Assembly (NCBI GenBank): GCA_963716565.1
Contig: OY970318.1
Coordinates: 64,830-128,829 of the forward strand
Source: an uncultured Candidatus Saccharibacteria bacterium
GTDB taxonomy: Bacteria; Patescibacteriota; Saccharimonadia; Saccharimonadales; CAIOMD01
Length of the DNA stretch: 64,000 nucleotides
Reading direction: 5' to 3'
How positions within the stretch are numbered: the first letter of the stretch is position 1; every line of letters starts with the position of its first letter. Below are positions 2,959-64,000 of this stretch, in pieces. A program made the position numbers and the translations under genes. The notes beneath the pieces are model-generated. The model was not told where the DNA came from, did not search any database, and saw only the letters and a program-made list of their open reading frames with translations.

Positions 2959-3194
2959 AAGCATTACCACCTCTGTTAATCCAGAGGTTTTTTATTTGCT
3001 AATTTGCCGGCAACGATATTATATTACAAAATATTATTTTTTCGTAAGGTGATATGGTAACATATTAAACGTTCTACTCTGTGGGTTAACGAGTCGAGTG
3101 ACTCAATTTGGGGGAAGCCGCTTGTTATCACATAGCAGTGTGAAGCCGTATCAATACTGGGAGATGCTGTGTATCTCTAGCCCTTTGACAAGGA

Positions 3195-4256
3195 GTGTCT
3201 GAAATGAACGAATGCTACGATTTTTCTGCAAGCCCGACTACGGTTTGGCTGACGGTTAACAGACGATGCAACTTTCGGTGCAAATGGTGCTATGCCAAGG
3301 GATCGCGCTATAATCCGGCAGACGATATGTCATTCGACCAGGCTAAAAAACTGGTCGAACTGGTAGTCGGTCTGGGCATCAATCACGTGACGCTGACCGG
3401 TGGCGAACCAACGCTTTGGCCGCATCTCTTCGCTTTCAACGAGTACGCAAGAAGCAAGGGTGTTACCGTAAGCATGATCACGAACGCCTGCAAGTTTGGC
3501 GACGACAAGTACTGGGAACGGTATCTGAAGTCGCCATGCGACAACGTGGGCGTATCGATCAAGGGCGTCACCGAACGGCAGTTTGTTGATGTTGTTGGAG
3601 CGCCAGCGCTGCTCGCTAGTACCATCAAAGGTATTGAGCGAGCAATCAAGTATCATCCGAAGGCAGGCGTTGGTACCGTGTACTCAACGCTAACGTCGCA
3701 GGACGACGTGAAAGCCATAGCTTGGATGGCTTGGGACCTAGGGGCGGAGAGTTTTGTCATAAGCCCCTGTGGGGTCACCGTCTCTGACGGAGTGCCGTCT
3801 AACCAGTACGTGGTTGAGCCGAAGCAGCTTGTTAAAGACATACAAGAGCTGCATGGGTTCCTCGACGAACTATACGAAGGCGAGATTGTCATCGAGATGT
3901 CGCTGCCGTATTGCATGTGGCCGCAAGAGTTCCTAGATCGACTAGTGTCGAAAGGGCAACTACTCGGAGAATGCAGTGTGCAGGATCGTTCAGGTCTAGT
4001 GTTCGACAGCAAGGGGAATGTCCTATTCTGCAACAACATGCTAGAAACATGCGTTGCAGCGTACGGTGTCGATTTTGTCGACACCGCAAGTCTGATGAGC
4101 CACCTGAACTGCGACAAGGTCTGTGGCGAGTATGCCGAAGTCCTACGATATCCGGCAGACTGCTGCACTGTCTGCAGTAAAAAAGACCAATGCCGCGGCG
4201 GTTGTAATATCAACTGGGCAATTCTTGATCCGCAAGAATTATGCCACGCGGTGTAG
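3195..4256 (+). CDS. Radical SAM enzyme with C-terminal SPASM domain (peptide-maturase-like)
   Basis: CNFRCKWCYA gives the CxxxCxxC radical-SAM cluster near the N-terminus, followed by GGEPTL. The C-terminus has CTVCSKKDQCRGGC (Cx2Cx5Cx3C, the SPASM signature) plus upstream Cys (LPYCMW, GECS, LFCNN). The likely true start is ATG 3204, 8 nt after AAGGAG, rather than the track's GTG at 3195. The segment is GC-richer than its flanks. Confidence 0.85.
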   Translation: MSEMNECYDFSASPTTVWLTVNRRCNFRCKWCYAKGSRYNPADDMSFDQAKKLVELVVGLGINHVTLTGGEPTLWPHLFAFNEYARSKGVTVSMITNACKFGDDKYWERYLKSPCDNVGVSIKGVTERQFVDVVGAPALLASTIKGIERAIKYHPKAGVGTVYSTLTSQDDVKAIAWMAWDLGAESFVISPCGVTVSDGVPSNQYVVEPKQLVKDIQELHGFLDELYEGEIVIEMSLPYCMWPQEFLDRLVSKGQLLGECSVQDRSGLVFDSKGNVLFCNNMLETCVAAYGVDFVDTASLMSHLNCDKVCGEYAEVLRYPADCCTVCSKKDQCRGGCNINWAILDPQELCHAV

Positions 4257-4325
4257 AAGGGAGGTGACTGCTGAAAAAATAGTTTCGTGTCGTTGGTTGG
4301 ACAAAGTCAACAAGGAGAAAACGAA

Positions 4326-4439
4326 ATGACCCAGCTTATCCAGATGCTCAAGAAGTACGGCTCCAAGGAAGTCGCGGCCCTCGCCAAAGACCAGGGTGTC
4401 GCCTGTTCGACGAGGTGTCAGCGCAACTGGTGTAAGTAA
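4326..4439 (+). CDS. Small ORF not in the track: 37-aa Cys-rich peptide MTQLIQMLKKYGSKEVAALAKDQGVACSTRCQRNWCK (candidate RiPP precursor)
   Basis: ATG lies 6 nt after AAGGAGAAAAC and 70 nt after the rSAM stop, on the same strand and at the same GC level. The layout is a helical Lys-rich leader followed by a C-terminal core with 3 Cys (CxxxCxxxxC). A strong 15-bp stem-loop follows immediately at 4450-4483. Confidence 0.6.
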   Translation: MTQLIQMLKKYGSKEVAALAKDQGVACSTRCQRNWCK

Positions 4440-4449
4440 CACCAGCTCT

Positions 4450-4483
4450 CGCCCCCGCCAGGACCATTGGTCCTGGCGGGGGC
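4450..4483 (+). terminator. GC-rich stem-loop closing the rSAM-peptide cassette
   Basis: CGCCCCCGCCAGGACC-ATTG-GTCCTGGCGGGGGCG is a perfect long stem. There is no clear U-tract, so the function (terminator or stabiliser) is inferred. Confidence 0.55.
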
Positions 4484-4515
4484 GGTCACTACTACTATAT
4501 AATTAGTTAAATATT

Positions 4516-5214
4516 ATGAATTACACGTACAAAATTATTTTGGACAAACAAGGTGATATGTGGAACTGGAGGAACGCAGCGCGAAATAGTGTTCTTCACG
4601 GTCGCAGTTGGCGAGACGATTTAAGGTCAGACGAAGATAGAGAGGTTTTTGATAAGATTGCTAAAATGCGCAAAAAAGATGCTGAAGCCGTTTTATCGAC
4701 ATTTTTAGATAAAAAATACATAACCAACAAAGATGATATTGATATGTATATTGAATATTTAAATAAGGTATATTCCGTAAAACTCAATGATGCGTGTGAA
4801 TTATTAAAAAAGTTAACCGGTAAAGAATCATATTTTAAAAAGTTTATCATTCGAATTACCACCTTCCCCCGTTCACCGTACGACGATAAAGAAGGGTCGT
4901 TCTATATGAAATTTAATATTGATAATACGCCAATCGCCACTTTTCTGCACGAAGCGTTACATTTTCAGTTCCACAATTATTGGCGAGAAGACCCAAAGTC
5001 GCCGGTATCAAAGCTGTCGGCAAATGATTTTGATTACTTAAAGGAATCTTTAACGGTTATCTTAGACAACAGCTTGGTCCCTTTTATAGAAGTTTTTGAT
5101 CAAGTTTATTTATCGCATGAAAAATTTCGAAAAGCTCTCCATAAACAATGGCAAAAACACCATGATTTCGACAAGCTGGTTGAGTTTGGATTAAAAGAGT
5201 TGCCAAAATATTAA
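4516..5214 (+). CDS. Hypothetical protein with an HExxH motif (possible metallopeptidase-like)
   Basis: The only recognisable motif is FLHEALHFQFH. AT-rich native composition. Confidence 0.3.
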   Translation: MNYTYKIILDKQGDMWNWRNAARNSVLHGRSWRDDLRSDEDREVFDKIAKMRKKDAEAVLSTFLDKKYITNKDDIDMYIEYLNKVYSVKLNDACELLKKLTGKESYFKKFIIRITTFPRSPYDDKEGSFYMKFNIDNTPIATFLHEALHFQFHNYWREDPKSPVSKLSANDFDYLKESLTVILDNSLVPFIEVFDQVYLSHEKFRKALHKQWQKHHDFDKLVEFGLKELPKY

Positions 5215-5351
5215 GATATCTAAACAGCAAGAAGTCCAGACCATCTAACCAATCTACGGTGCGTTATATCTGAGATTACGGGTGTTGCCGCCTATGTCTT
5301 TCGTAACCGATGAAATAAAACGGCCTATTAAACTGTATTATTAATATAGCC

Positions 5352-5921
5352 ATGGTCGCTAAACCAGATAACCTAACCGATGCCGAAGTAGTTACCGCTG
5401 TTTTGAGTGGTAATAAAGACATGTATGCTCAAATAGTCGAAAAATACGAAGCAAGGCTATTGCGTTACATACTATTTTTAATAAAAGACTACGATCAAGC
5501 GTCGGACGTTTTGCAGGATACTTTTATTAAAGCTTATATAAATTTGCACAGTTTTCACTTAAACAAGAAGTTTTCGTCTTGGATATACCGTATTGCGCAT
5601 AACGAGGCCGTTAACGCTATTAAAAAGGCCAAGAAAACATCTACCTTTTCGGAGTTAGATATTAGCGGTGATAATTTTGCAGTGGAATTTTCTGGGGCTT
5701 ACGTTATGGACAAGATGTTTTTAAAGAAAGAAGTACAGCAATGCCTTAAGACACTCGATGTTAAATACAGCGAAGTTATTGCCTTATACTTTTTCGAAAA
5801 TCTAACATACACCGAAATCAGTGATATTTTGCACATACCCACCTCAACCGTTGGAGTTAGAATTAATCGTGCCAAAACAATACTTAAACAAGCCTGTTTG
5901 GGCAGAGGAGTAAAGCTATGA
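5352..5921 (+). CDS. ECF-type RNA polymerase sigma-70 family factor
   Basis: Region 2 (FSSWIYRIAHNEAVNAIKK) and region 4 HTH (LTYTEISDILHIPTSTVGVRINRAK). 189 aa. Confidence 0.85.
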   Translation: MVAKPDNLTDAEVVTAVLSGNKDMYAQIVEKYEARLLRYILFLIKDYDQASDVLQDTFIKAYINLHSFHLNKKFSSWIYRIAHNEAVNAIKKAKKTSTFSELDISGDNFAVEFSGAYVMDKMFLKKEVQQCLKTLDVKYSEVIALYFFENLTYTEISDILHIPTSTVGVRINRAKTILKQACLGRGVKL

Positions 5922-6427
5922 CTAAACCTAAAAAGTCCCAAATTAGCAGCGTAGAAGATGAAGTAATGGCCAAAATAACTACCGGCCAAATTAAAATGCA
6001 CCCGCGGGTTTATTACACTCTAGTAACCGTGCTGAGCGTTGCTGTTGTTGCTATCTTAGCGGTGGCTTTGGGCTACTTAATAAGTTTAGCCAGCTTATGG
6101 CTCCGTATTCAGAAAGCGGCCGGCCCAGCTTATGGTGCTCGTCAAAACCTAACCACTTTGGTAGATAACTTTCCCTGGTGGGCGGTGGTGTTAGCGATAT
6201 TAGCCGTAGTAGTTTTGGTTATGATGATTAAAAAGGTTGGAGCATTTTACAAAATCAAATTGGTGTATCTTGTGATGGGCATCATTATTGTAGCTGTTGC
6301 GGTAGGTTATGGTTTATCTTATACCCAATTACCGAATACTTTTAAACGGCATAATCAGAATACATGCGCTACAACAGATACCAATTGCACGACTCAAGTA
6401 AAAGGCTTTCGCTTTGGCCAGCAGTAA
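5918..6427 (+). CDS. Membrane protein, putative anti-sigma factor
   Basis: ATGA overlap with the sigma factor gene. It has several predicted TM helices, and the position is typical of a cognate anti-sigma factor. No sequence motif was recognised. Confidence 0.4.
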   Translation: MTKPKKSQISSVEDEVMAKITTGQIKMHPRVYYTLVTVLSVAVVAILAVALGYLISLASLWLRIQKAAGPAYGARQNLTTLVDNFPWWAVVLAILAVVVLVMMIKKVGAFYKIKLVYLVMGIIIVAVAVGYGLSYTQLPNTFKRHNQNTCATTDTNCTTQVKGFRFGQQ

Positions 6428-6483
6428 ATGAAATAAACACGGGCCTTTGGTTGTATTAAATATGTAACTAAAGGAAGGAAGAA

Positions 6484-6885
6484 ATGAAGAAATTAGCAAT
6501 ATTAACTGTAGGAACAGCAAGTTTGGCGATAGCCGGCTTTTTGCTGGTTCCTAGTTTAGCCGGCGCCCAAGGCGGCAATGGCTACAGTAACGGTAGCGGC
6601 AACCGTAGCGGTTATGGTCAGATGCTGGAAACTAAAGCTCAACTTTTGGGAATGACCACAGAAGAGTTGCAGTCCCAACTAAAAGAGAAGACCCTATACC
6701 AAATAATTGAAGAAAAAGGGCTAACCCAAGATCAGTTTCACGAACAGATGGGTGAAGCCGCCGAAGCTCGTTGGCAAGAGCGAGGTTTATCGGCTGAAGA
6801 AGTTGCCCAAAGGCAAACTCAGCGGGCCGAAAACCAAGGTGATTGTGACGGTACGGGCGGTGGGCGCCACGGCGCAAATCGCTAG
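6484..6885 (+). CDS. Secreted hypothetical protein
   Basis: Signal peptide MKKLAILTVGTASLAIAGFLLVPSLAGAQG, RBS AAGGAAGGAAG, and a downstream terminator. Confidence 0.5.
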   Translation: MKKLAILTVGTASLAIAGFLLVPSLAGAQGGNGYSNGSGNRSGYGQMLETKAQLLGMTTEELQSQLKEKTLYQIIEEKGLTQDQFHEQMGEAAEARWQERGLSAEEVAQRQTQRAENQGDCDGTGGGRHGANR

Positions 6886-6901
6886 TTAGTGAACAAAATA
6901 A

Positions 6902-6934
6902 AAAGAGCTTGCATATTCGCAGGCTCTTTTTAAT
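6902..6934 (+). terminator. Rho-independent terminator
   Basis: AAAAAGAGCTTGC-ATATTC-GCAGGCTCTTTTT. Confidence 0.75.
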
Positions 6935-7009
6935 GTGCAGCGAATACCCCTCAAAAAGCGCACCCCTGATTTAAAGAGTATAATAGGTTATGTAACGGGA
7001 GTTTATGTT

Positions 7010-7576
7010 ATGAAGAATTCTTTACTGGCATTATTAGCAGTAGTTGTTCTGGCTTTGGGCAGCTGGATTATTTACGACCAAACGAAATCCAATAATTCTA
7101 ATCCTGGCGGCACATCAAACACATCGGCTAGCGCAAATGTTTTGGATTTAAGTAACCAAGGCCTAGCATCGGTTGGTTCTAGTATTTATAACCAAACTAG
7201 CGTAACTACCTTGATCCTCTCTAACAACAACCTGAAAACTCTGCCATCCCAAATGGGCAAGATGACTAAGGTGCAGGTTTTTAGGATAGATCATAATATT
7301 CTAGAGGGCAGTTTGATTGGCGAAATAAGGCAAATGCCACAGCTAACCCTATTAGATGTTAGCTATAACAATATGACAGGTATGCCAGCCGAAATTGGCC
7401 AACTAAGTAAGCTGGTTACCTTAGACTACAGCTATAACCAAATTACTGGCCTGCCAAATGAACTTGCTAATCTAAAAAACAATCTAAAAACCTTTGACTT
7501 AACTGGCAACCCCCTAAGCCAAAGCACCATAGACAACTTAAGAGCCTCCTTGCCATACACAGATATAATCTTTTAG
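7010..7576 (+). CDS. Leucine-rich-repeat (LRR) surface protein, N-terminal membrane anchor
   Basis: LRR units LxxLxLxxNxL (TTLILSNNNLKTLPSQMG, LTLLDVSYNNMTGMPAEIGQL, LVTLDYSYNQITGLPNEL, LKTFDLTGNPL). The probable start is ATG 7010 (MKNSLLALLAVVVLALG) inside track ORF 6935..7576. Confidence 0.8.
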   Translation: MKNSLLALLAVVVLALGSWIIYDQTKSNNSNPGGTSNTSASANVLDLSNQGLASVGSSIYNQTSVTTLILSNNNLKTLPSQMGKMTKVQVFRIDHNILEGSLIGEIRQMPQLTLLDVSYNNMTGMPAEIGQLSKLVTLDYSYNQITGLPNELANLKNNLKTFDLTGNPLSQSTIDNLRASLPYTDIIF

Positions 7577-7602
7577 ACACTGGCGAGACTTTGTTGGTAA
7601 AG

Positions 7603-7968
7603 CTAAGTATTTAGCAGTTCAATAGGATACGGCGGGGTAGGGATCGGTATTGGAGTAGTCGTTATGGGTGGGATTGGCGTTGGGCTGGATGTAGGTGTGG
7701 GTGTCAAAATGGGGTTAGGCCCAGTTACTTCTGGCTGATTATTGGAATCGCCGGTAGCTGGGTTAGTCGGTGTTGGACTGGGCGTGGGTGTAGGGATTGC
7801 AGCTGCTTCATCTTTACTTAGGGTGTAGGTTGTCTGCACTCCCTTTGTCTCGGTAACATCTTCTGATTTCTGCCAATCATAAAGCCAATAAGCTAAAGCG
7901 GCCAATATTACAGCCAACACAATCAAGCGTTTTGGGCTTAGTAGGGTTTTTAGCAAGCTGAGCATCAT
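7603..7968 (-). CDS. Pro/Thr-rich membrane-anchored protein
   Basis: N-terminal TM helix followed by low-complexity PTPTPSPTP repeats. Confidence 0.45.
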   Translation of the reverse strand: MMLSLLKTLLSPKRLIVLAVILAALAYWLYDWQKSEDVTETKGVQTTYTLSKDEAAAIPTPTPSPTPTNPATGDSNNQPEVTGPNPILTPTPTSSPTPIPPITTTPIPIPTPPYPIELLNT

Positions 7969-7992
7969 CTTATAATCCTATATTATCATTTG

Positions 7993-9774
7993 TTAATACA
8001 AAAGCTTCGTGTAGGTATTTTTAAACTCGTGAAATATATCGATATAGCGTGAAACTTGAGCAGTGTCGTGTGGCTGTTGCATGCAGGTATAGGCGAACAG
8101 GCTAGAAGAATAGCCGCTTTGCTGGGCTTTGTAGTTCTCGACGTAGCTGATAGTAAAAAAGTTTAGAATAGAGTTGTTTAACTCGAATATCGGTGTTGTG
8201 CCAACGGTGTTACTGGGGCAAGACGCAGCCTGAGAGTTATTAGCTTCCTCGCTAACGCTAAATATCGGGAACAAGCCATTGCTGATTGGTTTAAATACGT
8301 AGTTTTGGCCAAGTTCAAGTGGTTGGTACATTCGATTGTTGGCCTTGTAGGCGTCGGCCGTGCCAAAACCTAAAGTGTTGCTTCTGGGTGTTGAAGCGCC
8401 AAGCGTAAGGCGATTGGTATTTTCGGCCAAAGCAGCCATTAGCTGAATGGGCGTAGCTTGGGGTTGTTGGCTGGCCAGGCGAGCCAGTAAACCGCTAACT
8501 AACGGGGTTGCCAGTGATGTGCCAGCGGCATCGTAATAATAGTCGCTAGTTGGGTTGCCAGCCGACCAAGTCGCTGAATCTATCGAAACACCGGGGGCTA
8601 ATATATCTAGATTTGTTCCCCAAGAACTAAAACTGGCCGGAGTATTATTGGTATTTAAGGCTCCTACGGCTACAACTTCTGGGTAGTTAGCGGGGTAAAG
8701 CATACAATCACAGCCGTCATTGCCCGCTGCTGCCACTACAATGATTCCTTTGGCTATAGCATACTGAACGGCATCGCGTACTAAATCGTCCGGGTAATCG
8801 CTGCCCAGGCTTAGACTAATAACATCAACCCCCATATCGGCAGCATACGAAATTGAACGGCTAACGCTTAGAGTGTCGCCGTAAGCGTCGTCGTCTAAGG
8901 CTTGGATGGGTAGTATTTTAGTTTGCCAGTTAACTCCGGCTATACCCTTACCATTGTTGCCAGTAGCTGCTGCTGCCCCTGTTACGATTGTTCCGTGCTT
9001 AGTGCCGTTTCCGGTAGGATTAAGCTGCCCGGCCTGCACTGAGCTGTCGTAGTTAATAAAATCCCAACCAGTTACATCGTCGACATAGCCGTTGCTATCA
9101 TCGTCGATGTTATTGCAATCTTTTGTTAAGGGTTTAGATTGAGCAGTGCAGTTTAGCTTAGATGGATTCTGGTAAACTACGGAACCGGTTTCGTTGTCGA
9201 CTATGCCATCGCTGTTGTCGTCTATTAAGTTACAGCTAGCCGATAGTGGCAGGCTGCGACCCGTACAATTTAGTACTGATGGAGCTTCACTGCTGGCGAC
9301 TCCCGATTCGCCGGGGTTCACAAACCAACGATTTTGAAATTCTTCATGGGCCAGTGCAAACCCAGTATCGATTACTGCCATAACAGTTTCTTCGCTACCA
9401 GCCGGAATATCCCACATATCATCCAAACTCATATTTGTTACCCACCACTGTGAAACTAGCGGGTCATTGGGCATCATTAACAACTTATAGGGGTGTACGG
9501 GGTATTCTTTATTATTGATTGTAACCGAGCTACTTCTTAGCGGAGGAGCCGTAACTTGCGGGGCTGGTACATTATCACTATTGTTGCTAGTAGCGACTTC
9601 ATTATTGTCGGCAACATTGGGTTTAGAAATTTGGCCACCAAGCTGATTTGATTCGGGTGACTTTTTTGGGCCAGAGTGCTCTCGTCGCTGATATCCTACT
9701 ACTGCGCAGAGTGAAACCGCCCCAATCAAGGCCAAAACAGCCAGTACCCTTAGAAATGTTTTATTCTTTAGCAT
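7993..9774 (-). CDS. Subtilisin-like serine protease (peptidase S8), secreted or anchored
   Basis: Catalytic triad contexts AVIDTGF (Asp), HGTIVTGAAAA (His) and GTSLATPLVSG (Ser). N-terminal anchor or signal. Duplicated Cys/Asp-rich loops CNLIDDNSDGIVDNETG and CNNIDDDSNGYVDDVTG. Confidence 0.9.
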   Translation of the reverse strand: MLKNKTFLRVLAVLALIGAVSLCAVVGYQRREHSGPKKSPESNQLGGQISKPNVADNNEVATSNNSDNVPAPQVTAPPLRSSSVTINNKEYPVHPYKLLMMPNDPLVSQWWVTNMSLDDMWDIPAGSEETVMAVIDTGFALAHEEFQNRWFVNPGESGVASSEAPSVLNCTGRSLPLSASCNLIDDNSDGIVDNETGSVVYQNPSKLNCTAQSKPLTKDCNNIDDDSNGYVDDVTGWDFINYDSSVQAGQLNPTGNGTKHGTIVTGAAAATGNNGKGIAGVNWQTKILPIQALDDDAYGDTLSVSRSISYAADMGVDVISLSLGSDYPDDLVRDAVQYAIAKGIIVVAAAGNDGCDCMLYPANYPEVVAVGALNTNNTPASFSSWGTNLDILAPGVSIDSATWSAGNPTSDYYYDAAGTSLATPLVSGLLARLASQQPQATPIQLMAALAENTNRLTLGASTPRSNTLGFGTADAYKANNRMYQPLELGQNYVFKPISNGLFPIFSVSEEANNSQAASCPSNTVGTTPIFELNNSILNFFTISYVENYKAQQSGYSSSLFAYTCMQQPHDTAQVSRYIDIFHEFKNTYTKLLY

Positions 9775-9870
9775 TATATCTGAATTAATTATAGCCTATA
9801 CGAATGCAGGTATCACTTGAAAAAGCTTTTAGACAGTCCTTTGCCTATAAAACTTTACTACCAAATATAA

Positions 9871-18036: not shown

Positions 18037-18065
18037 TTTACAAACATCTAAAAAAATGATATAAT
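18037..18065 (+). promoter_or_regulatory. Sigma70-type promoter TTTACA-17-TATAAT
   Basis: Read directly, 36 nt upstream of the ATG at 18102. Confidence 0.5.
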
Positions 18066-18101
18066 ATCGGCATTGTCCAAGTCAACGCAGGGGATGGAAC
18101 C

Positions 18102-18488
18102 ATGGTGTTTAAGAGCGTTGTGCTGGAAGTGGGCGATTTTGTTGCCTTCACGGCAACGTCCGTGCCGCTTCCAGAAGTCCAGGCTGCTGTTGTCGATGTA
18201 GAGGATGGCGTACTCGAAGTTATGAGTACGCTTCTCAAACCTTTTCAGCACTCTGGCAAGTTCCGCGAAGACGAAGTGGGCGAGATTATGGTGGTCTACC
18301 CGGCCGCCATAGCTATTCCCCAGGAATCTGGTCGCGAGGACTTTGCCCCCCAACGGCGCGCTACATGTGTCTTCGAGGGGCGACAATATGAGGGCAGGAT
18401 CATGGCCGCTTTTAGTGGCTGGGTCTACATGCAGGCTGATGACGGGACTCCCCTCACGGGCAGTCCTAATCATTTCAATATCCTGTAG
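18102..18488 (+). CDS. Hypothetical protein (128 aa) in a GC-rich island
   Basis: Its own promoter and the RBS-like GGGGA precede the ATG. First codon positions are G-rich and the composition is V/E/G/A/D-rich, whereas the fully overlapping minus-strand ORF is H/R/S-rich. No motif recognised. Confidence 0.5.
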   Translation: MVFKSVVLEVGDFVAFTATSVPLPEVQAAVVDVEDGVLEVMSTLLKPFQHSGKFREDEVGEIMVVYPAAIAIPQESGREDFAPQRRATCVFEGRQYEGRIMAAFSGWVYMQADDGTPLTGSPNHFNIL

Positions 18489-18596
18489 GGACCATACTGC
18501 TCGACAGCTGGCGCACGACCTTCTTAGGTACGGCGCCTTTTCCTTTCTGAGAAAAGAAGAGCAATTTTATCTGATACAATTTAGAAGTCGCGACGA

Positions 18597-18672
18597 GGGG
18601 TGTTAGCTTAGCTGGTAAAGCGCAGCATTCGCATTGCTGAGACCACCGGTTCGAATCCGGTACACTCCACCA
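18597..18672 (+). tRNA. tRNA-Ala (anticodon CGC), G3:U70, CCA encoded
   Basis: GGGGTGTTAGCTTAGCTGGT...CAGCA-TTCGCAT-TGCTG...GGTTCGAATCCGGTACACTCCACCA. Confidence 0.9.
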
Positions 18673-19278: not shown

Positions 19279-19355
19279 GGGGATATAGCTCAGTTGATTA
19301 GAGCGCTTGCCTGGCAGGCAAGAGGTCCGGGGTTTGAGTCCCCGTATCTCCACCA
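19279..19355 (+). tRNA. tRNA-Ala (anticodon GGC), G3:U70, CCA encoded
   Basis: GGGGATATAGCTCAGTTGATTAGAGC...CTTGC-CTGGCAG-GCAAG...GGTTTGAGTCCCCGTATCTCCACCA. Confidence 0.9.
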
Positions 19356-19482: not shown

Positions 19483-19511
19483 TAGACAATAGTGCTTGAA
19501 TATATTATAAT
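19483..19511 (+). promoter_or_regulatory. Promoter TAGACA-17-TATAAT with a roughly 95-nt structured leader
   Basis: Read directly. The leader contains the inverted repeat GGTCGCAA...TTGCGACC enclosing ATTAGCTTTTTATTAGTTGATAGC. Confidence 0.45.
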
Positions 19512-20054: not shown

Positions 20055-20100
20055 GGCCATTAGTTGGGCGGGCTGGGAGCATTGGGCTCCTGGCCCCAGT

Positions 20101-54900: not shown

Positions 54901-55226
54901 CCGACGAAGCCGGCAACAATGCCGCAACAGTTACGCGGACAGTGCAGGTAAACAATCCTACTTTTGTGCCTACAGCAGGAGCGGCTTTTGTTACAGGTGC
55001 CTTAATTACCCCAGCCCCAACTGCTCCTATCGCAGAAACAACTCCCACACCTTCTGTTACCGAAACCGACTCCAGCCAGACTGGTAGTGAAACTACCGAG
55101 GTACAAGGTTCTACCGCCAATGGCGACCACTGGTATGCTCTATGGTGGGTCTGGGTATTGGCTGCGCTTGGTGTTGGCGGTGGCTTATGGTTCTTAATTC
55201 GACGACGCGTTAGTGAAGATAGCTAA
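51963..55226 (+). CDS. Giant surface protein (1087 aa): signal peptide, multiple Ig/FN3-like domains, C-terminal TM anchor
   Basis: Signal ITAVALVLSITPSLMFSGDASA. Recurrent D(N/Q)(T/A)AP(x) domain boundaries. Ig-like DUF5011-type unit VTLTVGDTYTELGATS...YLVNYDATDEAGN. The C-terminus is WWVWVLAALGVGGGLWFLIRRR. No LPxTG motif. Confidence 0.7.
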   Translation: MRGFKKVLSKIGLNITAVALVLSITPSLMFSGDASAVSTAVIYGAIPDSLPSNMVSLGFQATQTSAFGDYVHLAGTDRNLDAVTVTMSNWALYADYATDARYLGDSANWYHPITINIFDNHLGANGVPDTLLATVTQIATIPWRPAEDPTHCPTKSDSGYAYKWQSTPGAPDTNCYNGFAVNITFDMSSLNITLPDDVIVGIAYNTQSYGLAPIGVGGPYNSLNVGLEGLTTVGTDNNSDNVFWNTSTADWYTDDGAGGVGTFREDTGWAPYVIPIQITANITDTTAPEVPVHLSPSDNSYKTTANQTIIDWTTVTDPSAPVTYRYQSSNLPNTNPDGSFVSPAYTSGLLTASQIPTSGTPQGVYYWHVKAVDAVGNESNWSDAWKVTVDNAAPTTPTVSFINPTLPCDAITNIHNVTVDWTDSTDNHGLAGYEYLVDYPLANGSGRGQWATTFTASQYTGSLNEGYHDVKVRAKDLAGNYSAWSNICRITADWTAPDVEITAPSNGSVSGTVEVRGTVLDSNLWRYYTVVLNSSNQQVAGPGTVNFNDAFTNKSLFSFNTTLLADGIYTIRLEARDKANNKDAGSTDVNTITVDNTAPTADLVFANIGPGAISFDVVFSEPVDPTEATNPANYFLNNWPGAGGTGDLIGDANISYNGATNTATVTFLNAGWYVSPEQNWGVQDVHDLAGNLLVPSPTSETSTPMVAPTTTAILDGTVGLNSTYVSDVTVDFSATDPAVGSGVIATYYNLDGSGYLQGNPVLVTTDGAHNICYYSTDNAGNTEAEKCDVTFSIDQTAPVITINPYGIDPTNQDVVVTASTNEGTLNFDSYTFTDNGSFEFVSTDAAGNVTTETVIITNIDKIAPVITVGPYSTSPTNQDIVVVVSTNEGSLNFDAYTFTTNGSFDFVSTDAAGNVTTETVIIDNIDKAAPVITLTGGNVTLTVGDTYTELGATSTEGTVVITGSVNTAVAGTYLVNYDATDEAGNNAATVTRTVQVNNPTFVPTAGAAFVTGALITPAPTAPIAETTPTPSVTETDSSQTGSETTEVQGSTANGDHWYALWWVWVLAALGVGGGLWFLIRRRVSEDS
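54351..54746 (+). repeat. Tandem 198-bp (66-aa) coding repeat x2 inside the giant surface protein
   Basis: APVITINPYGIDPTNQD...NVTTETVIITNIDK is repeated as APVITVGPYSTSPTNQD...NVTTETVIIDNIDK. An identical 38-nt core (gtgtccaccgatgcagctggcaacgtcacaaccgaaac) occurs at 54483 and 54681. Confidence 0.9.
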
Positions 55227-55272: not shown

Positions 55273-56658
55273 CTAGGCCTGAGCCATTTGGCCGGCACGT
55301 TTGGGTGATATCCAAGTAGACAAACCAACGCTCCGTTTTATCACCTTGCGAAAATGAAAAAGCGATTTTATAGCTGCGCTGATTTGCACAACATCCATAG
55401 CATAGAATAGTATGTAAATAACTAGTGCCGAAAAGCTTAATCTTAGCTTCTCTCTTTTAGAAAGGTGTTCATCTGGCCATAACACACTGAGTGTATATAG
55501 CGAGATTGTTATGTAAGCCCCAATAAAAATGCCAATTGTTTGGTAATGGAAGCTTAAGTAAATTATGTAAGCCAACAGTAATGGTTCAAGCAGCAATAAA
55601 ACTTCGCTTATCAGTGCCACTGGCAAACGGTACAATGTTAAAGCTCGGCTATAAAGATTAGGCTGATATTTAGCAATAAGATGTCGGAACTTGAATAAGT
55701 TCTGCAAGTTGCCCATCTTCCAACGGTATCTCTGTCTTATAAGGTCTTCAAAGGTTTGTACGCCTTCGGTGTAAGCTACTACGTCGGCACCGTAAATTAC
55801 CCTGTGCTGGCGATTACCAATACTTGAAATTATTTTTAAGCTTAGGCCAATGTCTTCGGTCATTGTATCGTCATCATAAAACTTAACCTTTCGTAATACG
55901 GTTCTACGATAAGTGGAGGCCACTCCGCCTACAATAAATTCGCTGTTTGTTAAGCTATAGAACTTTTTAGATCTATAGCCAATCATGTGCTCGAATCTTT
56001 GTATCTTGCCCAGCATAGAAGAACTTTCCATAATTCTTACGTTGGCTGCTACGCCAATTATGTGATTATCTTTAAAATAGGCGACAGCTCTTTCTATAGA
56101 AGAGGGGTGGAGCATAGAATCGGCATCTAGGCACATAACATAGCGTCCTTTAACATAATTTTTAATAGCATTGTTCATAGCGCTAGCCTTGCCGCCATTG
56201 CGCTGATTGACTAATTTTAGGCGTATATCCCTAGTCCTTACTTGAATGTAGCGGCGTTTCTTAGGCTTAAGTAGGGCCCCCTTATCATCGAAATAGCTTC
56301 TAACCGAATGATACCGCTTTATTTTTTTACTTCTTATGTAGTCTTTTACTTTTTTGGCGGTGCTATCGGTAGACCCATCGTTAACAACAATAATTTCAAA
56401 ATTTGGGTATGTGTTTACCAAAATAGAATTAAGCGTACGGCAAATAACGCTTGCTTCGTTATGGGCAGGAACAACTACGCTTACCAAGTCAAAGCGCGGT
56501 TTTTTATTTGTTGGTCTGCTTGGGCGACGTTTTAAGCTGTCACGGCTCTTTTTATATGTCAATATGTCATAGATATTTGCCCCCACAATGTAGAAGCCAA
56601 GATGGACCACGGCTATTAAGTTGGCTATTGCCAGCAGGTACATTAAGAAGGTAAGCAT
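55273..56658 (-). CDS. Processive family-2 glycosyltransferase (PgaC/IcaA/cellulose-synthase-like)
   Basis: VVPAHNE, NDGSTD, LDADS and QRYRWKMG (QxxRW), flanked by N- and C-terminal TM helices. Confidence 0.85.
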   Translation of the reverse strand: MLTFLMYLLAIANLIAVVHLGFYIVGANIYDILTYKKSRDSLKRRPSRPTNKKPRFDLVSVVVPAHNEASVICRTLNSILVNTYPNFEIIVVNDGSTDSTAKKVKDYIRSKKIKRYHSVRSYFDDKGALLKPKKRRYIQVRTRDIRLKLVNQRNGGKASAMNNAIKNYVKGRYVMCLDADSMLHPSSIERAVAYFKDNHIIGVAANVRIMESSSMLGKIQRFEHMIGYRSKKFYSLTNSEFIVGGVASTYRRTVLRKVKFYDDDTMTEDIGLSLKIISSIGNRQHRVIYGADVVAYTEGVQTFEDLIRQRYRWKMGNLQNLFKFRHLIAKYQPNLYSRALTLYRLPVALISEVLLLLEPLLLAYIIYLSFHYQTIGIFIGAYITISLYTLSVLWPDEHLSKREKLRLSFSALVIYILFYAMDVVQISAAIKSLFHFRKVIKRSVGLSTWISPKRAGQMAQA

Positions 56659-57245
56659 TAAATGGCCCTTACAAAATCAAAGGTAAATAGCTGGCGATTT
56701 TGGTAGAACAATCCTTCGCATGTCTGTAGGGTTAAAATTGGCTTACCAGTATAGCCAAAAATACTATTGTCGTACTGGTTGGTTACTCTTTGGTAAGAGA
56801 ACTTATAATAAAAAGCATGGCCGTTAGAGGTTCTAATGATTGCTTCGGCACCATCCTCTATGTTGTGGAGCGTGGCGAACACCTCGTATCTATAGTGGCC
56901 GTATATAAAGGTGTTGCCCTCGATGTTGTTAGGTAGCGGAGTGATGGTAGCATATTGAACTTTGTCTGTAGTAAGGTTCCAAGTTTTGCTATCTTGGTAG
57001 TAATAGCCAGGGATAACTTCTAAATCGTAACCTAAACTAGGTATCAGAAGCCTTATAGGATCACCGCTTATTTCGTTTGTGATGTTGCCCGTATCAACAT
57101 TAGCAACATCTGAATAAGCAAACACTGGCTTTGTGCTGTTTGCAACGCTCATATAGCCAGAAAAGATAAGGGTAATAAGCACACCAAAGCCAAAAGATGT
57201 GAAAACAGTACCACCGTAAATGAATACACTTTTGAATTTATTCAT
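56658..57245 (-). CDS. Sortase (transpeptidase)
   Basis: N-terminal TM, catalytic His context FIYGH, TLxTC motif ILTLQTCEG, and a downstream Arg (NRQLF). Confidence 0.85.
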   Translation of the reverse strand: MNKFKSVFIYGGTVFTSFGFGVLITLIFSGYMSVANSTKPVFAYSDVANVDTGNITNEISGDPIRLLIPSLGYDLEVIPGYYYQDSKTWNLTTDKVQYATITPLPNNIEGNTFIYGHYRYEVFATLHNIEDGAEAIIRTSNGHAFYYKFSYQRVTNQYDNSIFGYTGKPILTLQTCEGLFYQNRQLFTFDFVRAI

Positions 57246-58720: not shown

Positions 58721-60214
58721 TTATTTACCCCAGTTAGTTAATAGAATTGATAAATCAAGTGCGCCTACCGCTAGGTCACCATTAACATCACCCTGGGCTA
58801 ACGTGGCGCCCGATTTACCCCAGTTAGTTAACATAATGCTCAGATCTAGCGCGTTAATGAGTCCGTCACTGTTTGCATCACCCGTTTTGTTGGTAGTTAC
58901 CGATATTGCAACTGGTGACAAAAACTTCATAGTGTCAAGGTATGCACTGATGCCAGAATTAGCGCTAACAATTAATTGCAAGCGGGCGCTGGTAACGGCT
59001 GTAGATGTAGGTGCGTATTCAAAATTGAGGTTCTCTAAATAAACACTTGGTTCTTGTACTTTGAACTGGCCTGACAGCCAAGTGCCTTCGGAGTTGTATT
59101 CATCTATATAGAATCCGATGGCACCGCTGTTTATGGCGGTTACATTCAAATAGCATTTAATTACATATGTTTGGGTTGGGTCTATCTTAACGATTGTGGA
59201 AAATAAATGAGAATTTACATTGGCCGATTCCATCTTTACAGAATTCGTGGGGCTCGGGCCGCTACCATTATTTTGGGTATCTTGCTTGATTGTAGCGGGG
59301 CTGTCTGTATTCCAAGTCGCGGTGCTAATAGCTGAGTCGACTAATGGGGAATCAAACGTTTCGTTCCCGAATAGGTCTGCATCACTATTGATTAAGCCTT
59401 CAGAAATGTTTACTACTGGCAAATTTTTTTCTTTAACATAACTGGCAATGGCATCTAAATCTGCAGTACTGTACTGGTAATCGTCTGGGTCAGTGCTTGG
59501 AGTTACCCGTATATCATGCATGGTGAGAATAAGCCATTGGTTATTAGCAATCGCGTAGTCTATGTAACCCTTTACCGTAGCTACGCTTACACCGACTTGT
59601 ACGGGTTGATCGCGTAGTAGGTAATCACTGTACGGGTATGGGTTGTAGCCTGTATCGGCAAAACCACGGTGTGAGGTGTATACTTTAGCGATTTCGGCTA
59701 GAACCGGCTGGTTCCAGTCGCCGTACGGCGAAGAAAAGGCCGTGGTGGTAATTCCATTGCTGGTAAGCACGCTTTTTGAGGTAGTAAGTTCGTTGACTAC
59801 TTCTGCTGTCGTGAGCTTATTCGGCTGGTCGTCGGGGTCGCTACTCGCGAGATATGGATGAGTGGCACTATGCGAGCCGATTTCCCAGCCGTAGGTATCT
59901 ACAAGCGTATGTATCTGAGACCAGTCCATATAAGGTACGTCTTCGTCTGCCTTGCAGTTGTTAGGGGTAGTTGTCATGCCTACGCAACTTGATACAACAT
60001 AATTGGTGGCCGCAAAGCCATACTTGGCCAATGTTGGGGCAGCTTGGGTAAAGGCACTTTGCAGGCCATCATCAAAAGTAAAAGATATTTTTGCTACACG
60101 CTGCAAGTTTTGATTTAATGCCAATGCCTGCAATCCAAATGCAAACAGCATTGATATGCTAATGGAAACAGCCATTAGCCGTACGATTATTTTATTGCCA
60201 ATAAGTCTATTCAT
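58721..60214 (-). CDS. Secreted polysaccharide deacetylase (NodB/CE4) with a CBM-like domain and a C-terminal dockerin
   Basis: NodB motifs FTFDDG and GSHSATHP. A jelly-roll CBM4_9-like middle region. Two dockerin Ca-loops, GDANSDGLINALDLSIMLTNWGK and GDVNGDLAVGALDLSILLTNWGK. Confidence 0.8.
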   Translation of the reverse strand: MNRLIGNKIIVRLMAVSISISMLFAFGLQALALNQNLQRVAKISFTFDDGLQSAFTQAAPTLAKYGFAATNYVVSSCVGMTTTPNNCKADEDVPYMDWSQIHTLVDTYGWEIGSHSATHPYLASSDPDDQPNKLTTAEVVNELTTSKSVLTSNGITTTAFSSPYGDWNQPVLAEIAKVYTSHRGFADTGYNPYPYSDYLLRDQPVQVGVSVATVKGYIDYAIANNQWLILTMHDIRVTPSTDPDDYQYSTADLDAIASYVKEKNLPVVNISEGLINSDADLFGNETFDSPLVDSAISTATWNTDSPATIKQDTQNNGSGPSPTNSVKMESANVNSHLFSTIVKIDPTQTYVIKCYLNVTAINSGAIGFYIDEYNSEGTWLSGQFKVQEPSVYLENLNFEYAPTSTAVTSARLQLIVSANSGISAYLDTMKFLSPVAISVTTNKTGDANSDGLINALDLSIMLTNWGKSGATLAQGDVNGDLAVGALDLSILLTNWGK

Positions 60215-61824: not shown

Positions 61825-62053
61825 ATTAGACGATAGATGATGGACTCTAGACGCTTGAGAGTGAGCTAATCAGGGAAGAAACCTAATAGTAATAGTGTAG
61901 TTAAATAAAATACGCTATAGCGTATTTTATTAAGATATTCACCGATATATTCATAGCTAATTGGTTAAGCTAATGTGCAGGCCCATCAATTTGGGGATAG
62001 GGCGCTTTCTGGGTTCAGGATCTTAAAAATATTGCGTTCGTATGTAACACGTA

Positions 62054-63211
62054 CTACGATTTTGAGTCTGTTTTATTGGCTGCGGCTATTTCGGCTTCGT
62101 TATCGACAGCAGCTAGGTAAACTTGTACGGTAGTGACAATCAGAATCATTAATACTGGGCCCAGTACAATGCCCACAAAACCAAACATACTTAAACCAGC
62201 GAAGACCGATAAGATAACCAAGGCCGAGTCCATATAAGCCCTTTTAGATGCAAACTTGGGGCGTACGATGTTATCGATATTGGTAACAATTAATATGTGG
62301 CCGGCAATTAAGACTATGCCTTGCCAAATATGACCAGTTAATAGCAAGATTACGCCTATTGGTAAAACTGCAGCACCGCCCCCCAATGGGATGATTGATA
62401 AGAAGGTAGTTAGCACAAACCATAAAAAGAAGTAGCGCAGGCCGACCGCCCATAATAAGGCGGCGTCTACTAGCCCCTGCAAAACGGCAATGGCAAATTG
62501 GCCTTTTACCATAGCTGTTGTCATGGCGCCGATGCGTTTTAGGTAAAGATTAGTCGCCTTTTCGCCTAGTGGGTTAATCCGCCGTATGGCGTAAAGAATT
62601 TTATCTTGATTACGGAGAACTGACATAAAGACATACACGTAAATTACTAATTTAGCCAAAAAGCCTACGATACTACCAGTTAATCCTGCAAAAAAGTTAA
62701 AAACATATTTGGCGATATTGCTGGCGTTAGATTGCAGCCAATCGGTCACCTGCACGGTGCTAATATTATCTACAGAACCCCCGGGCAGTTTATCTATTAG
62801 GTTATTAATTGCTGTTAAGGCTTGATCTATAAAGTTGCCGAACGAAGTGCCTTGTGTAGCCGACTTTGTAAGCTCATTGGCAAACTGAACGGCTTGGTCG
62901 ATGGTAAAGATCAGCACCAAGCTAAGGGGTATTAATATGGTAATCACCGAAAGAACAAAGGTTAGAGCAATACATAGCCCGGTGCGGTTATTAGTTTTGC
63001 GCAGTAACCACTGGTAAATTGGATTAAACATGTAGGCTACAATTACGCCTATAGCGATTACAAAGAAGTAGCTGCGCAAGAAGTAAATGCCTAGTAGTAG
63101 GGCTAATATTACGGCAATCGACAGGGCGTGTCGCTGTTTGCCATCCATCAGCCTAACAATATGTCTATGAATTTTGCGCATCTTAACTAAAAGCATACTA
63201 TATCTTGCCAT
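62054..63211 (-). CDS. AI-2E family transporter (PerM/UPF0118)
   Basis: Topology and motifs typical of the family (8 TM, PLGGGAAVLPIGVILL, DNIVRP). Confidence 0.75.
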   Translation of the reverse strand: MARYSMLLVKMRKIHRHIVRLMDGKQRHALSIAVILALLLGIYFLRSYFFVIAIGVIVAYMFNPIYQWLLRKTNNRTGLCIALTFVLSVITILIPLSLVLIFTIDQAVQFANELTKSATQGTSFGNFIDQALTAINNLIDKLPGGSVDNISTVQVTDWLQSNASNIAKYVFNFFAGLTGSIVGFLAKLVIYVYVFMSVLRNQDKILYAIRRINPLGEKATNLYLKRIGAMTTAMVKGQFAIAVLQGLVDAALLWAVGLRYFFLWFVLTTFLSIIPLGGGAAVLPIGVILLLTGHIWQGIVLIAGHILIVTNIDNIVRPKFASKRAYMDSALVILSVFAGLSMFGFVGIVLGPVLMILIVTTVQVYLAAVDNEAEIAAANKTDSKS

Positions 63212-63346
63212 GAAATAACAGGTTGCAACGGCATGGTCTTGCCAATATGCTTGTCGGAGCGTAAGCTAAAAATGGAAGGCCTAAAAACCATCCATTAAGC
63301 CGGGTTAAAACCCGGCTTTAAGTATTTACTGACCTCTGTTCAGCCA

Positions 63347-63375
63347 TTGACAAAACATGGCGCTTATGCTATGAT
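63347..63375 (+). promoter_or_regulatory. Sigma70-type promoter TTGACA-17-TATGAT with a roughly 120-nt structured leader
   Basis: Read directly. The leader has hairpins TCTTGA-GATT-TCAAGA and GCGGCAG...CTGCCGC. Confidence 0.55.
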
Positions 63376-63499
63376 GTGCTAGTCTTGAGATTTCAAGAGG
63401 CAAGTTGACAATTTATAGCTAAAAGCGGCAGATGGGGCATAACAGGTTTGTGCCCAGCCTGCCGCTTTGAAGTGAAAATGCTCTCGAAAAGGAGTAGCC

Positions 63500-63859
63500 A
63501 TGAAGAAGTTTTCTAAGCTTGACGACAGGCTGGCCGGCACTATAACTGTTTTGGAGGCCATGCTGATAGTCGCTGCGGTGTTCGTTGTTGTGCTGATATC
63601 GGCAAGTATTACCGCGCAGCACGCACAGAACACGGCCAGCAGGGCAGTTGTGCTGATCGAGGAGATGGCCAATGGCAGCTTGGACCTTGCGGAAATCGAC
63701 AAGGGCCAGAACGAGCTCATCAGGCAGCTGCAAGATCGTCTCTGGGAAGCAGAGCGCACCATAGAGCAGTTGCGCCAGGACCTTTATGGTCCGGGCGACG
63801 CTGATGGCGGCAAGAACGGAGACGTTCAGGCGCAGCCAACAGTGCTTTACAGAAAGTAA
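63500..63859 (+). CDS. Membrane-anchored coiled-coil protein (119 aa) in a GC-rich island
   Basis: RBS AAAGGAG. TM ITVLEAMLIVAAVFVVVLISASI followed by a heptad-like helical region. Two terminator hairpins lie at 63875-63907 and 63926-63948. Confidence 0.55.
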   Translation: MKKFSKLDDRLAGTITVLEAMLIVAAVFVVVLISASITAQHAQNTASRAVVLIEEMANGSLDLAEIDKGQNELIRQLQDRLWEAERTIEQLRQDLYGPGDADGGKNGDVQAQPTVLYRK

Positions 63860-64000
63860 CACCTCAAAGTGGTCGAGGGCGGGAGCGCGTATGCGCTCCT
63901 GCCCCTCAACCCAAGAATTATTGTTGGAGCCCTTCGGGGCTCTTTTTTGATTGATCTTAGTATACAATTAGAATAGCTACTTAAAGTAGCTGGGCAAATG

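Follow-up and report, generated by a model that had tools for sequence, protein, structure and literature searches.

How does a reduced bacterial genome come to carry short stretches of markedly GC-richer DNA, and are these stretches native or acquired? The question is raised by 64,000 nucleotides of DNA from an uncultured Candidatus Saccharibacteria bacterium (assembly GCA_963716565.1, contig OY970318.1, positions 64,830 to 128,829 of the forward strand), referred to here as the window, in which seven GC-rich islands stand out from the surrounding genes. These islands are foreign-composition islets, probably gained piecemeal, in variable and preferentially tRNA-adjacent slots between core genes. 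A first-pass annotation made from the letters alone had proposed piecemeal acquisition for all of them; sequence comparison supports it for islands 1–5, which deviate in composition and are absent from relatives, while island 6 is a clade-conserved locus. Here we describe the composition, location, expression signals and cargo of the islands, and weigh the possible sources and routes of the DNA.

The organism is placed by its ribosomal protein L25, with matches in Candidatus Saccharibacteria/Saccharimonadales genomes (49–60% identity), and by its LemA protein, which is 75–91% identical to many proteins named Candidatus Saccharibacteria by NCBI; both agree with the Saccharibacteria-like organism suggested at first pass. 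The genome was also described as AT-rich and reduced. It is indeed small (a chromosome of ∼0.8 Mb, with proteins recorded on one 799,209-bp contig), but only moderately AT-rich at 44% GC. The window has 44.3% GC, or 43.0% with the islands removed, and the islands combined make up ∼13% of it.

Composition of the islands

The islands and their open reading frames (ORFs) are listed below, with positions numbered from the first letter of the window. Promoter scores are matches to TTGACA-(16–18)-TATAAT out of 12 positions, GC3 is the GC content at third codon positions (GC1 and GC2 likewise for the first and second), z denotes deviation from the respective control, and ORFan denotes an orphan ORF.

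Island 1, 2996–4484, plus strand: promoter-like site at 2996–3025 (9/12), leader, radical-SAM maturase, peptide, hairpin
3195 or 3204 to 4256, plus strand: radical-SAM/SPASM-type maturase of island 1 (PF04055, 6e-21; GC3 0.60)
4326–4439, plus strand: 37-residue peptide of island 1 with three Cys (GC3 0.79)
4450–4484, plus strand: 17-bp perfect GC hairpin of island 1
Island 2, 18037–18590, plus strand: ends 7 bp before tRNA-Ala(CGC)
18037–18065, plus strand: promoter of island 2, TTTACA-17-TATAAT (11/12)
18102–18488, plus strand: 128-residue ORF of island 2, with outlier GC3
Island 3, 19483–20126, plus strand: promoter at 19483–19511 (11/12), leader hairpin at 19522–19592 (z = −5.4)
19608–20054 and 20101–20126, plus strand: 148-residue ORFan of island 3 and its terminator
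Island 4a, 37650–38407, minus strand: promoter at 38407–38379 (TTGACA-17-TACTAT), leader hairpin, 195-residue ORF, GC hairpin
38319–37732, minus strand: 195-residue ORF of island 4a (annotated start 38319; GC3 0.78)
Island 4b, 38663–39040, minus strand: 125-residue ORFan as annotated, possibly 88 residues from an internal ATG (GC3 0.61)
Island 5, 43377–44117, minus strand: promoter at 44117–44090 (10/12), hairpin at 43377–43403; on the 5' side of tRNA-Gln
43949–43482, minus strand: 155-residue membrane ORFan of island 5 (GC3 0.67)
Island 6, 44467–46816, plus strand: conserved promoter at 44467–44495, three-hairpin leader from 44496 to ∼44640, terminator at 46776–46816
44679–44786, plus strand: 35-residue single-pass membrane ORF of island 6
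44849–46705, plus strand: 618-residue surface protein of island 6 (annotated start 44849)
Island 7, 63347–63943, plus strand: promoter at 63347–63375 (TTGACA-17-TATGAT, 11/12), terminator at 63926–63943
63500–63859, plus strand: 119-residue membrane/coiled-coil ORFan of island 7 (GC3 0.68)

The 500-bp GC profile peaks at 0.52–0.60 at the seven places picked out by eye at first pass, against a background of ∼0.43, and the segments as delimited there have GC contents of 47.8–56.1%. Compared with random background chunks of equal length, islands 1 to 7 give z-scores of 4.5, 1.9, 2.5, 5.6, 4.8, 7.7 and 3.6, respectively, and islands 1, 4, 5, 6 and 7 exceed all 2,000 chunks. Taken over their full length, islands 2 and 3 deviate only marginally (z ∼2), owing to the AT-rich promoter DNA that they include; their ORFs are clear outliers. 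GC3 ranges from 0.556 to 0.789 in ten island ORFs, as against a mean of 0.410 (standard deviation 0.031, maximum 0.464) in 52 background genes, corresponding to z = 4.7–12.4. The island ORFs show near-normal GC1 and GC2 with only a slight rise (both ordinary in the 125-residue ORFan), and the signal is therefore synonymous and not one of amino-acid composition. Synonymous codon usage deviates as well (z = −4.1 to −7.3), as does tetranucleotide usage normalized for base composition, strongly for islands 1 (z = −6.0), 4 (−4.4) and 6 (−7.2) and weakly for the short islands. The visual impression of seven GC-rich segments is thus confirmed. An origin of the GC-rich signal in non-coding RNA genes was considered and rejected: Rfam, at gathering and at permissive thresholds, finds no RNA family in the whole window besides tRNAs.

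Slots beside tRNA genes and their contents in relatives

Ten tRNA genes are identified in the window, four of which lie next to islands:

2872–2958, plus strand: tRNA-Leu(GAG) (ARAGORN, Rfam); a 9.4-kb variable stretch, edged by island 1, has its left breakpoint at the 3' end of this gene
18597–18672, plus strand: tRNA-Ala(CGC) (ARAGORN, Rfam)
19279–19355, plus strand: tRNA-Ala(GGC) (ARAGORN, Rfam)
43198–43271, minus strand: tRNA-Gln(CTG) (ARAGORN, Rfam)

The distances between island and tRNA gene are 102 bp (Leu-GAG), 7 bp (Ala-CGC), 125 bp (Ala-GGC) and 69 bp (Gln-CTG). Four of seven islands thus have a tRNA gene at most 125 bp away, in line with the adjacency noticed in the first-pass annotation; if islands were placed at random, four in seven would fall within 150 bp with a probability of 0.006. 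The other three islands are not tRNA-adjacent.

Orthologous slots were compared in loci of related genomes: L056–L060 for the tRNA-Leu and tRNA-Ala slots (L060 being GCA_029548985.1), L013 and L014 for islands 4 and 5, and L013, L014 and L015 for island 6. Islands 1–5 are missing from these slots, which hold other genes or almost nothing. At the slot of island 1, the gene order in L060 is FAD-oxidase, tRNA-Val, Gly, Phe, tRNA-Leu(GAG), 152 bp, tRNA-Cys, tRNA-Leu(TAA), LemA, M48 peptidase and LigA; the interval from tRNA-Leu(GAG) to tRNA-Cys is 9.4 kb in the window versus these 152 bp in L060, which has no GC-rich stretch there. In L056, 5.5 kb separate the FAD-oxidase gene from LemA. Alignment of the window with L060 and L056 shows that homology stops exactly at the 3' end of tRNA-Leu(GAG), and directly 3' of this tRNA gene L056 carries a cassette of its own (4474–5340, minus strand), with a 203-residue ORF of 60% GC, the promoter TTGACA-17-TAAAAT, a leader with a 19-bp hairpin (z = −5.7), a Shine–Dalgarno sequence and a GC hairpin terminator. 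Its 203-residue protein has no similarity to any protein of the window. Within the 9.4-kb stretch of the window, a 232-residue ORFan directly after island 1 (4516–5214) deviates in the opposite direction (35% GC) and has no match in Pfam, NCBIfam or PHROG.

The slot of island 2 is occupied in L056–L060 by AT-rich genes (of 90, 200 or 340 residues), and at the slot of island 3 tRNA-Ala(GGC) leads straight to an MBL-fold or Mur-ligase gene. In L014, TrmD (89% identical) directly precedes a different gene at the slot of island 4, and a 219-residue gene stands where the window has the 155-residue gene of island 5, which has no homologue at this position in L014 or L013. Two wider searches added no closer comparison: a genome-collection scan with L25 confirmed the phylum and found relatives too distant for synteny, and a metagenome scan with LigA found no close relative with usable flanks. 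Neither TrmD nor the 618-residue protein of island 6 had a record under exact look-up.

Could the islands be chimeras, with reads of a GC-richer organism inserted during assembly or binning? The source is apparently a metagenome-derived genome, which would allow for this, yet we give the idea next to no credence. The islands are only 0.6–2.4 kb long with syntenic Saccharibacteria genes on both sides, within a 799-kb contig; each has its promoter and terminator correctly placed; and island 6 occurs in three other genomes. In addition, the junctions of island 5, glutaredoxin and island 6 were independently assembled, with the same gene order, in two other sequencing runs, which argues against chimerism.

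Expression signals

Throughout the 64 kb, 20 sites on both strands reach the promoter threshold of at least 10/12 positions, and six of these lie just upstream of island units. Of the eight island transcription units, six have a sigma-70-like promoter at this threshold 37–184 nt ahead of them, compared with only 5 of 53 native genes (Fisher P = 2e-4), a contrast that is inflated because many native genes lie in operons. The near-consensus promoter proposed for every island is therefore present at six of the eight units, the exceptions being island 1 (9/12) and the 125-residue gene (9/12, with the site inside the annotated start).

A structured leader of 90–140 nt had likewise been described for every island. 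Compared with shuffled controls, leader hairpins are significant in islands 3, 4, 6 and 7 (z = −3.6 to −5.4; the leader of island 7 has 124 nt with a long hairpin, z = −4.4), weak in island 1 (z = −2.1) and missing from islands 2 and 5, and the leader of island 2 is only 37 nt long. The GC hairpin terminators fared better, GC hairpins being seen downstream of the island ORFs. The typical island is thus self-contained, with one or two genes in monocistronic units: an AT-rich near-consensus promoter and usually a 5' stem-loop precede the Shine–Dalgarno sequence and the GC-rich ORF, and a hairpin terminator follows.

The GC excess is limited to the transcribed part, chiefly the ORF, and the promoters are AT-rich. 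In the alignment with L060 and L056 these AT-rich consensus promoters are part of the variable DNA, which suggests either that the donor used transcription signals like those of Saccharibacteria or that the promoters were adapted once acquired.

A clade-wide surface-protein locus at island 6

The 618-residue protein of island 6 has an N-terminal anchor, repeated Ig-like modules and Thr-rich linkers, and ends in a putative sorting-type C-terminus (...DEYPFTGFQLLIGLGAAAALGGGGVALRRLTSRKK) comprising a YPFTG motif, a hydrophobic segment and the basic tail RRLTSRKK. The motif is of the form xPxTG and not the canonical LPXTG, and the homologues have YPYTG, NPLTG and MPFTG in its place. A sortase is encoded in the same genome (PF04203, 3e-16; 56658–57245, minus strand), and the protein is predicted to be sortase-anchored. 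The actinobacterial style given to this sortase substrate in the first-pass annotation is not upheld, the motif YPFTG being different from the actinobacterial LPXTG or LAXTG. A second surface module, of native composition, lies further along the window and consists of a 1087-residue Ig-like repeat protein (51963–55226), the sortase (56658–57245) and a polysaccharide deacetylase with dockerin (58721–60214).

A search of 5.8 billion proteins finds just three homologues of the 618-residue protein, all in Saccharibacteria, and their genes lie just upstream of the L25 gene in convergent orientation, or adjoin glutaredoxin. The locus is kept beside L25 in L013, L014 and L015, the three relatives examined there, where the surface-protein gene has GC3 values of 0.53–0.67 as against 0.27–0.42 in flanking genes. 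Conservation is unevenly distributed along the locus. The promoter and the first ∼110 nt of the leader are ∼90% identical in the four genomes, compared with ∼76% DNA identity for core genes, while the proteins encoded downstream are 31–60% identical. The 618-residue protein is also a mosaic, with residues 451–550 showing 74–82% identity to the homologues P0002/P0003 and residues 101–200 showing 64–74% identity to P0004. The copies of the promoter and three-hairpin 5' leader are as follows:

44467–44640: window
9659–9795: L013
9652–9795: L015
9621–9762: L014

The leader has no Rfam match, and no compensatory change is seen among the four copies; a covariance model built on it finds only these four and one degenerate copy (L013, 11575–11699). 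The leader is a candidate for a new cis-regulatory RNA. Taken together, these comparisons indicate that island 6 is an old, clade-wide and recombining locus for a domain-shuffled, predicted sortase-anchored surface protein, at which the promoter and leader would be conserved while the coding part would be exchanged piecewise between lineages. The first-pass view of the islands as acquired and not vertically conserved fails for island 6, which is conserved and GC-rich in L013, L014 and L015.

Single GC-rich genes are also seen in AT-rich surroundings elsewhere in these relatives, namely a polysaccharide deacetylase gene next to the surface-protein gene in L013 (11736–12809; GC3 0.56) and the gene of a 449-residue membrane protein in L015 (4154–5503; GC3 0.61), so that GC-rich islets recur across the clade.

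These observations bear on the possibility that the islands are vertically inherited and fast-evolving, with high GC3 kept up locally, for instance through GC-biased gene conversion at recombination hot spots or through selection acting on the mRNA, and with absence from relatives due to loss or divergence. Such an account would explain why island 6 is syntenic and GC-rich in four genomes despite protein identities down to 31%, and it fits the recombination that the mosaic identity reveals there, the ORFan status of several cargo genes, and the further GC-rich genes of relatives (the 449-residue, deacetylase and 203-residue genes of L015, L013 and L056). The GC shift usually credited to biased gene conversion in bacteria amounts to a few percent, however, and the GC3 shift of the islands (+0.15 to +0.38) is far above it. 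Tetranucleotide usage differs too, slots 1–3 are empty or filled by unrelated genes in L056–L060, and the 128- and 195-residue families occur in unrelated contexts of differing GC. We regard vertical inheritance as unlikely.

Source of the DNA

Donor GC contents were estimated with the Muto–Osawa and Lawrence–Ochman regressions, which reproduce the background well. The GC3 of the islands implies donors of ∼52–66% GC, and GC1 is without sign of heavy amelioration. Core genes of higher-GC Saccharibacteria have GC3 values of 0.58–0.60 (LigA of L016, L25 of L002), matching most islands. The closest readable context of the 128-residue family is a contig of 39% GC, where the GC3 of the homologue is native (0.35); for the 195-residue family, the contigs examined have 46–53% GC, and there too the gene shows a modest GC enrichment. 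Higher-GC Saccharibacteria or other Patescibacteria fit the source pool at least as well as Actinobacteria. The amino-acid composition of family members (GARP versus FYMINK) was also tried as a proxy for donor GC and was uninformative.

The donor named at first pass was a high-GC actinobacterial host; on such an account, DNA released by the host would enter the epibiont and become fixed piece by piece. Saccharibacteria do live on Actinobacteria and carry DNA-uptake machinery (PMC11665869; PMC8406219). The gene of the 195-residue protein and that of the 37-residue peptide have GC3 values of 0.78–0.79, implying a source of ∼65% GC. A weak hint also comes from one homologue of the 195-residue protein, located in a 53% GC contig beside a GT2/GlxA-like/GH6 trio, which we take to resemble the Streptomyces cslA-glxA-cslZ cluster. 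Nevertheless, none of the cargo genes had an identified actinobacterial homologue: the homologues that could be placed are in Saccharibacteria, exclusively so for the 618-residue protein, or in contigs of 39–53% GC, including the 39% GC context in which the 128-residue family has native GC3. Most islands have GC3 values of 0.56–0.68, far below the >0.85 expected at 65–72% GC, and GC1 shows no trace of heavy amelioration. The promoters, which are part of the variable DNA, are native-looking AT-rich TTGACA-17-TATAAT types, and the sorting motif YPFTG is not an actinobacterial one. The identity of the donor is a matter of inference, and as the findings do not support an actinobacterial host, we consider direct transfer from one decidedly improbable.

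Mobility signals and the proposed route of acquisition

Profile scans (Pfam, NCBIfam, PHROG) of ∼60 of the ∼64 candidate genes of the window found no integrase, transposase or relaxase families, in keeping with the absence of mobility genes noted at first pass. There are no bracketing direct repeats around any GC-rich cassette, no terminal inverted repeats or attC-like ends at the islands, and no sequence similarity between islands. An 11-bp repeat (AAGGTGATATG) lies on either side of island 1, at 3046 and 4550, and was dismissed because ∼0.4 occurrences are expected by chance in a region of such size. A phage or plasmid origin was also examined and rejected: PHROGs, IMG/VR, INPHARED and PLSDB give no specific match, the island proteins matching no viral contig, plasmid or phage genome, and the only PHROG-type matches among them reflect the generic radical-SAM similarity of the island 1 enzyme.

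The one att-like repeat noted earlier, at tRNA-Gln, is real, but instead of bracketing a GC-rich ORF it encloses only 163 bp on the 3' side of the tRNA:

43013–43034 and 43198–43219, minus strand: repeat pair at tRNA-Gln, a 22-bp exact copy of the tRNA 3' end, enclosing 163 bp

In L014 the same 22-mer occurs at 1553–1574 and, within the tRNA, at 8311–8332, flanking a 6.7-kb AT-rich element. The repeat pair in the window is the scar of a serine-recombinase integrative element that is intact in L014. The L014 element (1553–8332) encodes McrB/HNH, a REP_ORF2-G2P replication protein and a 521-residue large serine recombinase, and the 3' end of the recombinase gene overlaps the tRNA gene. The 163 bp between the repeats in the window contain no genes and include a tRNA-like fragment (∼43128–43160).

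It had been suggested as an alternative that the islands form one family of non-autonomous elements, mobilized in trans by a recombinase encoded elsewhere. The shared build of promoter, 5' hairpin, ORF and terminator, seen also in the L056 cassette at the same tRNA, is compatible with such a family, as is the use of tRNA-Gln by a serine-recombinase element in L014 with its scar in the window. The islands nevertheless share no sequence with one another and lack bounding direct repeats, terminal inverted repeats and attC-like ends; the DNA inside the sole att pair (163 bp) is not part of an island, the AT-rich L014 element is unrelated to the islands, and three islands lie away from tRNA genes. 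The suggestion is therefore not supported, and we rate it as very improbable.

Piecemeal acquisition of foreign-composition islets into variable slots, the favored reading, calls for a route that leaves no such traces. The absence of recombinases, att sites and shared ends, together with published transformability, makes DNA uptake followed by recombination in the flanks the most economical model. Natural transformability has been shown for Saccharibacteria, with homologous recombination able to direct introduced DNA to chromosomal sites, and the group has no known natural plasmids (PMC11665869); continuous lateral remodeling of Saccharibacteria proteomes has also been reported (PMC8406219). 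The islands would have been gained one at a time, with no recombinase of their own, most likely through natural transformation and then recombination anchored on conserved flanks (tRNA genes, core genes, L25 and the conserved leader). Remnants of decayed tRNA-targeting integrative elements may be a second source for some islands. We infer this uptake and recombination route from the features of the islands and from the literature.

Several points weigh against this reading. The relatives are distant, with core proteins 55–91% identical, and the absence of islands from them may also reflect loss; the presence/absence comparison covers islands 1–6. No donor was found, and the 148-, 125-, 119- and 155-residue proteins and the 37-residue peptide have no homologue beyond themselves. 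The competence route draws on literature about other Saccharibacteria. Finally, the high GC of island 6 persists across four lineages, among which synonymous sites should have reached saturation, so that a one-off acquisition followed by amelioration is insufficient, and either repeated exchange from a GC-richer pool or a local GC-favoring process is needed.

A bolder version of the exchange model is that Saccharibacteria regularly trade integrase-free, ready-to-express single-gene cassettes (promoter, 5' stem-loop, GC-rich ORF, terminator) through competence into fixed tRNA and core-gene slots, with re-supply from a high-GC pool blocking amelioration. We put this forward as a speculative proposal, for which the odds are poor; if it were true, the island 6 'expression site', with its conserved leader and shuffled adhesin gene, would be the clearest example.

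Cargo of the islands

Island 1 had been described as a pair of a radical-SAM enzyme and a peptide. The radical-SAM core, with the CxxxCxxC motif CNFRCKWC, and the Cys-containing peptide gene are both present. The relatives of the enzyme in the PDB are SkfB, PqqE and CteB, and its closest likeness is to SPASM/twitch peptide maturases; however, it falls below every curated NCBIfam maturase cutoff (StsB, PapB or similar; best 45–72 bits versus 231–650) and so belongs to no curated maturase family. As in the gene clusters for sactipeptides and ranthipeptides, which are ribosomally synthesized and post-translationally modified peptides with radical-SAM/SPASM maturases, the enzyme has a Cys-rich C-terminal region and is followed by a gene for a Cys-containing peptide and a terminator. 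It differs from these in reaching no curated threshold, in the peptide having no homologue, and in having no transporter or protease gene alongside.

The 128-residue protein of island 2 has ∼45 representative homologues (up to 53% identity), and its structural model (predicted local distance difference test score, pLDDT, of 98) consists of tandem small beta-barrels of the SH3/Tudor/KOW type. The 195-residue protein of island 4a has ∼100 representative homologues (28–43% identity). Its model (pLDDT 95.2) gives 17 best PDB matches that are nearly all of the DUF336 type (4nkp, 6bws, 2a2l, 5cx7, 3fpv); these matches to DUF336/GlcG/HbpS/EfgA structures have a best probability of 1.0, are mostly at probability >0.9, and have target-normalized template-modeling scores of ∼0.6 and E-values of ∼2e-3. 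No Pfam match is found for this protein even at E ≤ 10 (DUF336 being PF03928), and it carries an N-terminal extension relative to the DUF336-type structures. According to the model, then, it shares the GlcG/HbpS/EfgA fold through a distant relationship. Two GlcG-like proteins had been proposed at first pass: the 195-residue protein qualifies by fold but not by Pfam, and the label finds no support for the 148-residue protein of island 3, with no Pfam match, no PDB sequence hit and an hhalign probability of 0.2 to the 195-residue family.

The remaining cargo consists of orphan proteins. The 148-residue protein matches only itself among 1.84 billion representatives, and the representative search likewise returns only self for the 125-, 155- and 119-residue proteins. 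What was initially given as an 88-residue protein is the ORFan annotated with 125 residues, for which 88 residues are possible from the internal ATG. Singleton status is not special to island genes, since native genes are singletons too in clusters at 90% identity. As a whole, the cargo (a putatively radical-SAM-modified peptide, adhesin-like, small membrane, GlcG-fold and tandem beta-barrel proteins) looks like accessory equipment for niche or host interaction.

Relation to known systems and significance

Foreign-composition islets at tRNA hot spots are already well known in bacteria, and the window is a clean example. Like other tRNA-associated genomic islets, the islands have atypical composition and codon usage, border on tRNA genes, are polymorphic in presence and absence with different cargo at the same tRNA, and carry surface or niche accessory genes. 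They differ in being very small (0.6–2.4 kb, with one or two genes), in having no integrase or flanking direct repeats, in each having a near-consensus promoter of its own, and in exceeding the host genome in GC, foreign DNA being more commonly richer in AT. Of the hallmarks of a classical genomic island, deviant composition and codon usage, tRNA adjacency (4/7) and variable presence (islands 1–5) are found, and bracketing att repeats and an integrase or other mobility gene are not. Nor do the islands resemble integron cassettes, as they have no common imperfect inverted-repeat end and no integrase, and are scattered with a promoter each. With the serine-recombinase elements that target tRNA 3' ends, as in L014, the window shares the 22-bp duplicated 3' end of tRNA-Gln; its GC-rich 155-residue cassette, in contrast, lies across the tRNA and is unrelated to the element.

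Island 6 is better compared with the hypervariable surface loci of transformable bacteria, such as those for capsule or O-antigen. It resembles these in its fixed position between conserved flanks (the leader and L25), in its atypical composition in every lineage and in the mosaic similarity of its alleles. Unlike them, it has one protein gene accompanied by a small membrane ORF in place of a polysaccharide operon, and is GC-rich and not AT-rich; allele exchange at island 6 is proposed from sequence comparison.

The islands show where and how the reduced genome of an epibiont keeps its flexibility. Small foreign genes, each expressed on its own and together covering surface, membrane and peptide-modifying functions, enter at a handful of slots between tRNA or core genes. 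They provide candidates for host interaction, namely the shuffled surface adhesin with its conserved leader RNA, the radical-SAM-modified peptide, and two uncharacterized families with confident structural models. The slots are also candidate neutral or permissive integration sites for genetics in transformable Saccharibacteria. The most notable by-products of the analysis are the conserved leader RNA and the promoter enrichment.

Other observations

Outside the islands, two overlapping ORFs that differ in frame (29431–30591, 386 residues; 30579–32318, 579 residues) encode the leucyl-tRNA synthetase of the window. L056 has one ORF of 961 residues for this enzyme, and the L060 copy runs past the end of the locus. 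The two-ORF arrangement may reflect a split gene, a frameshift or an error in sequencing.

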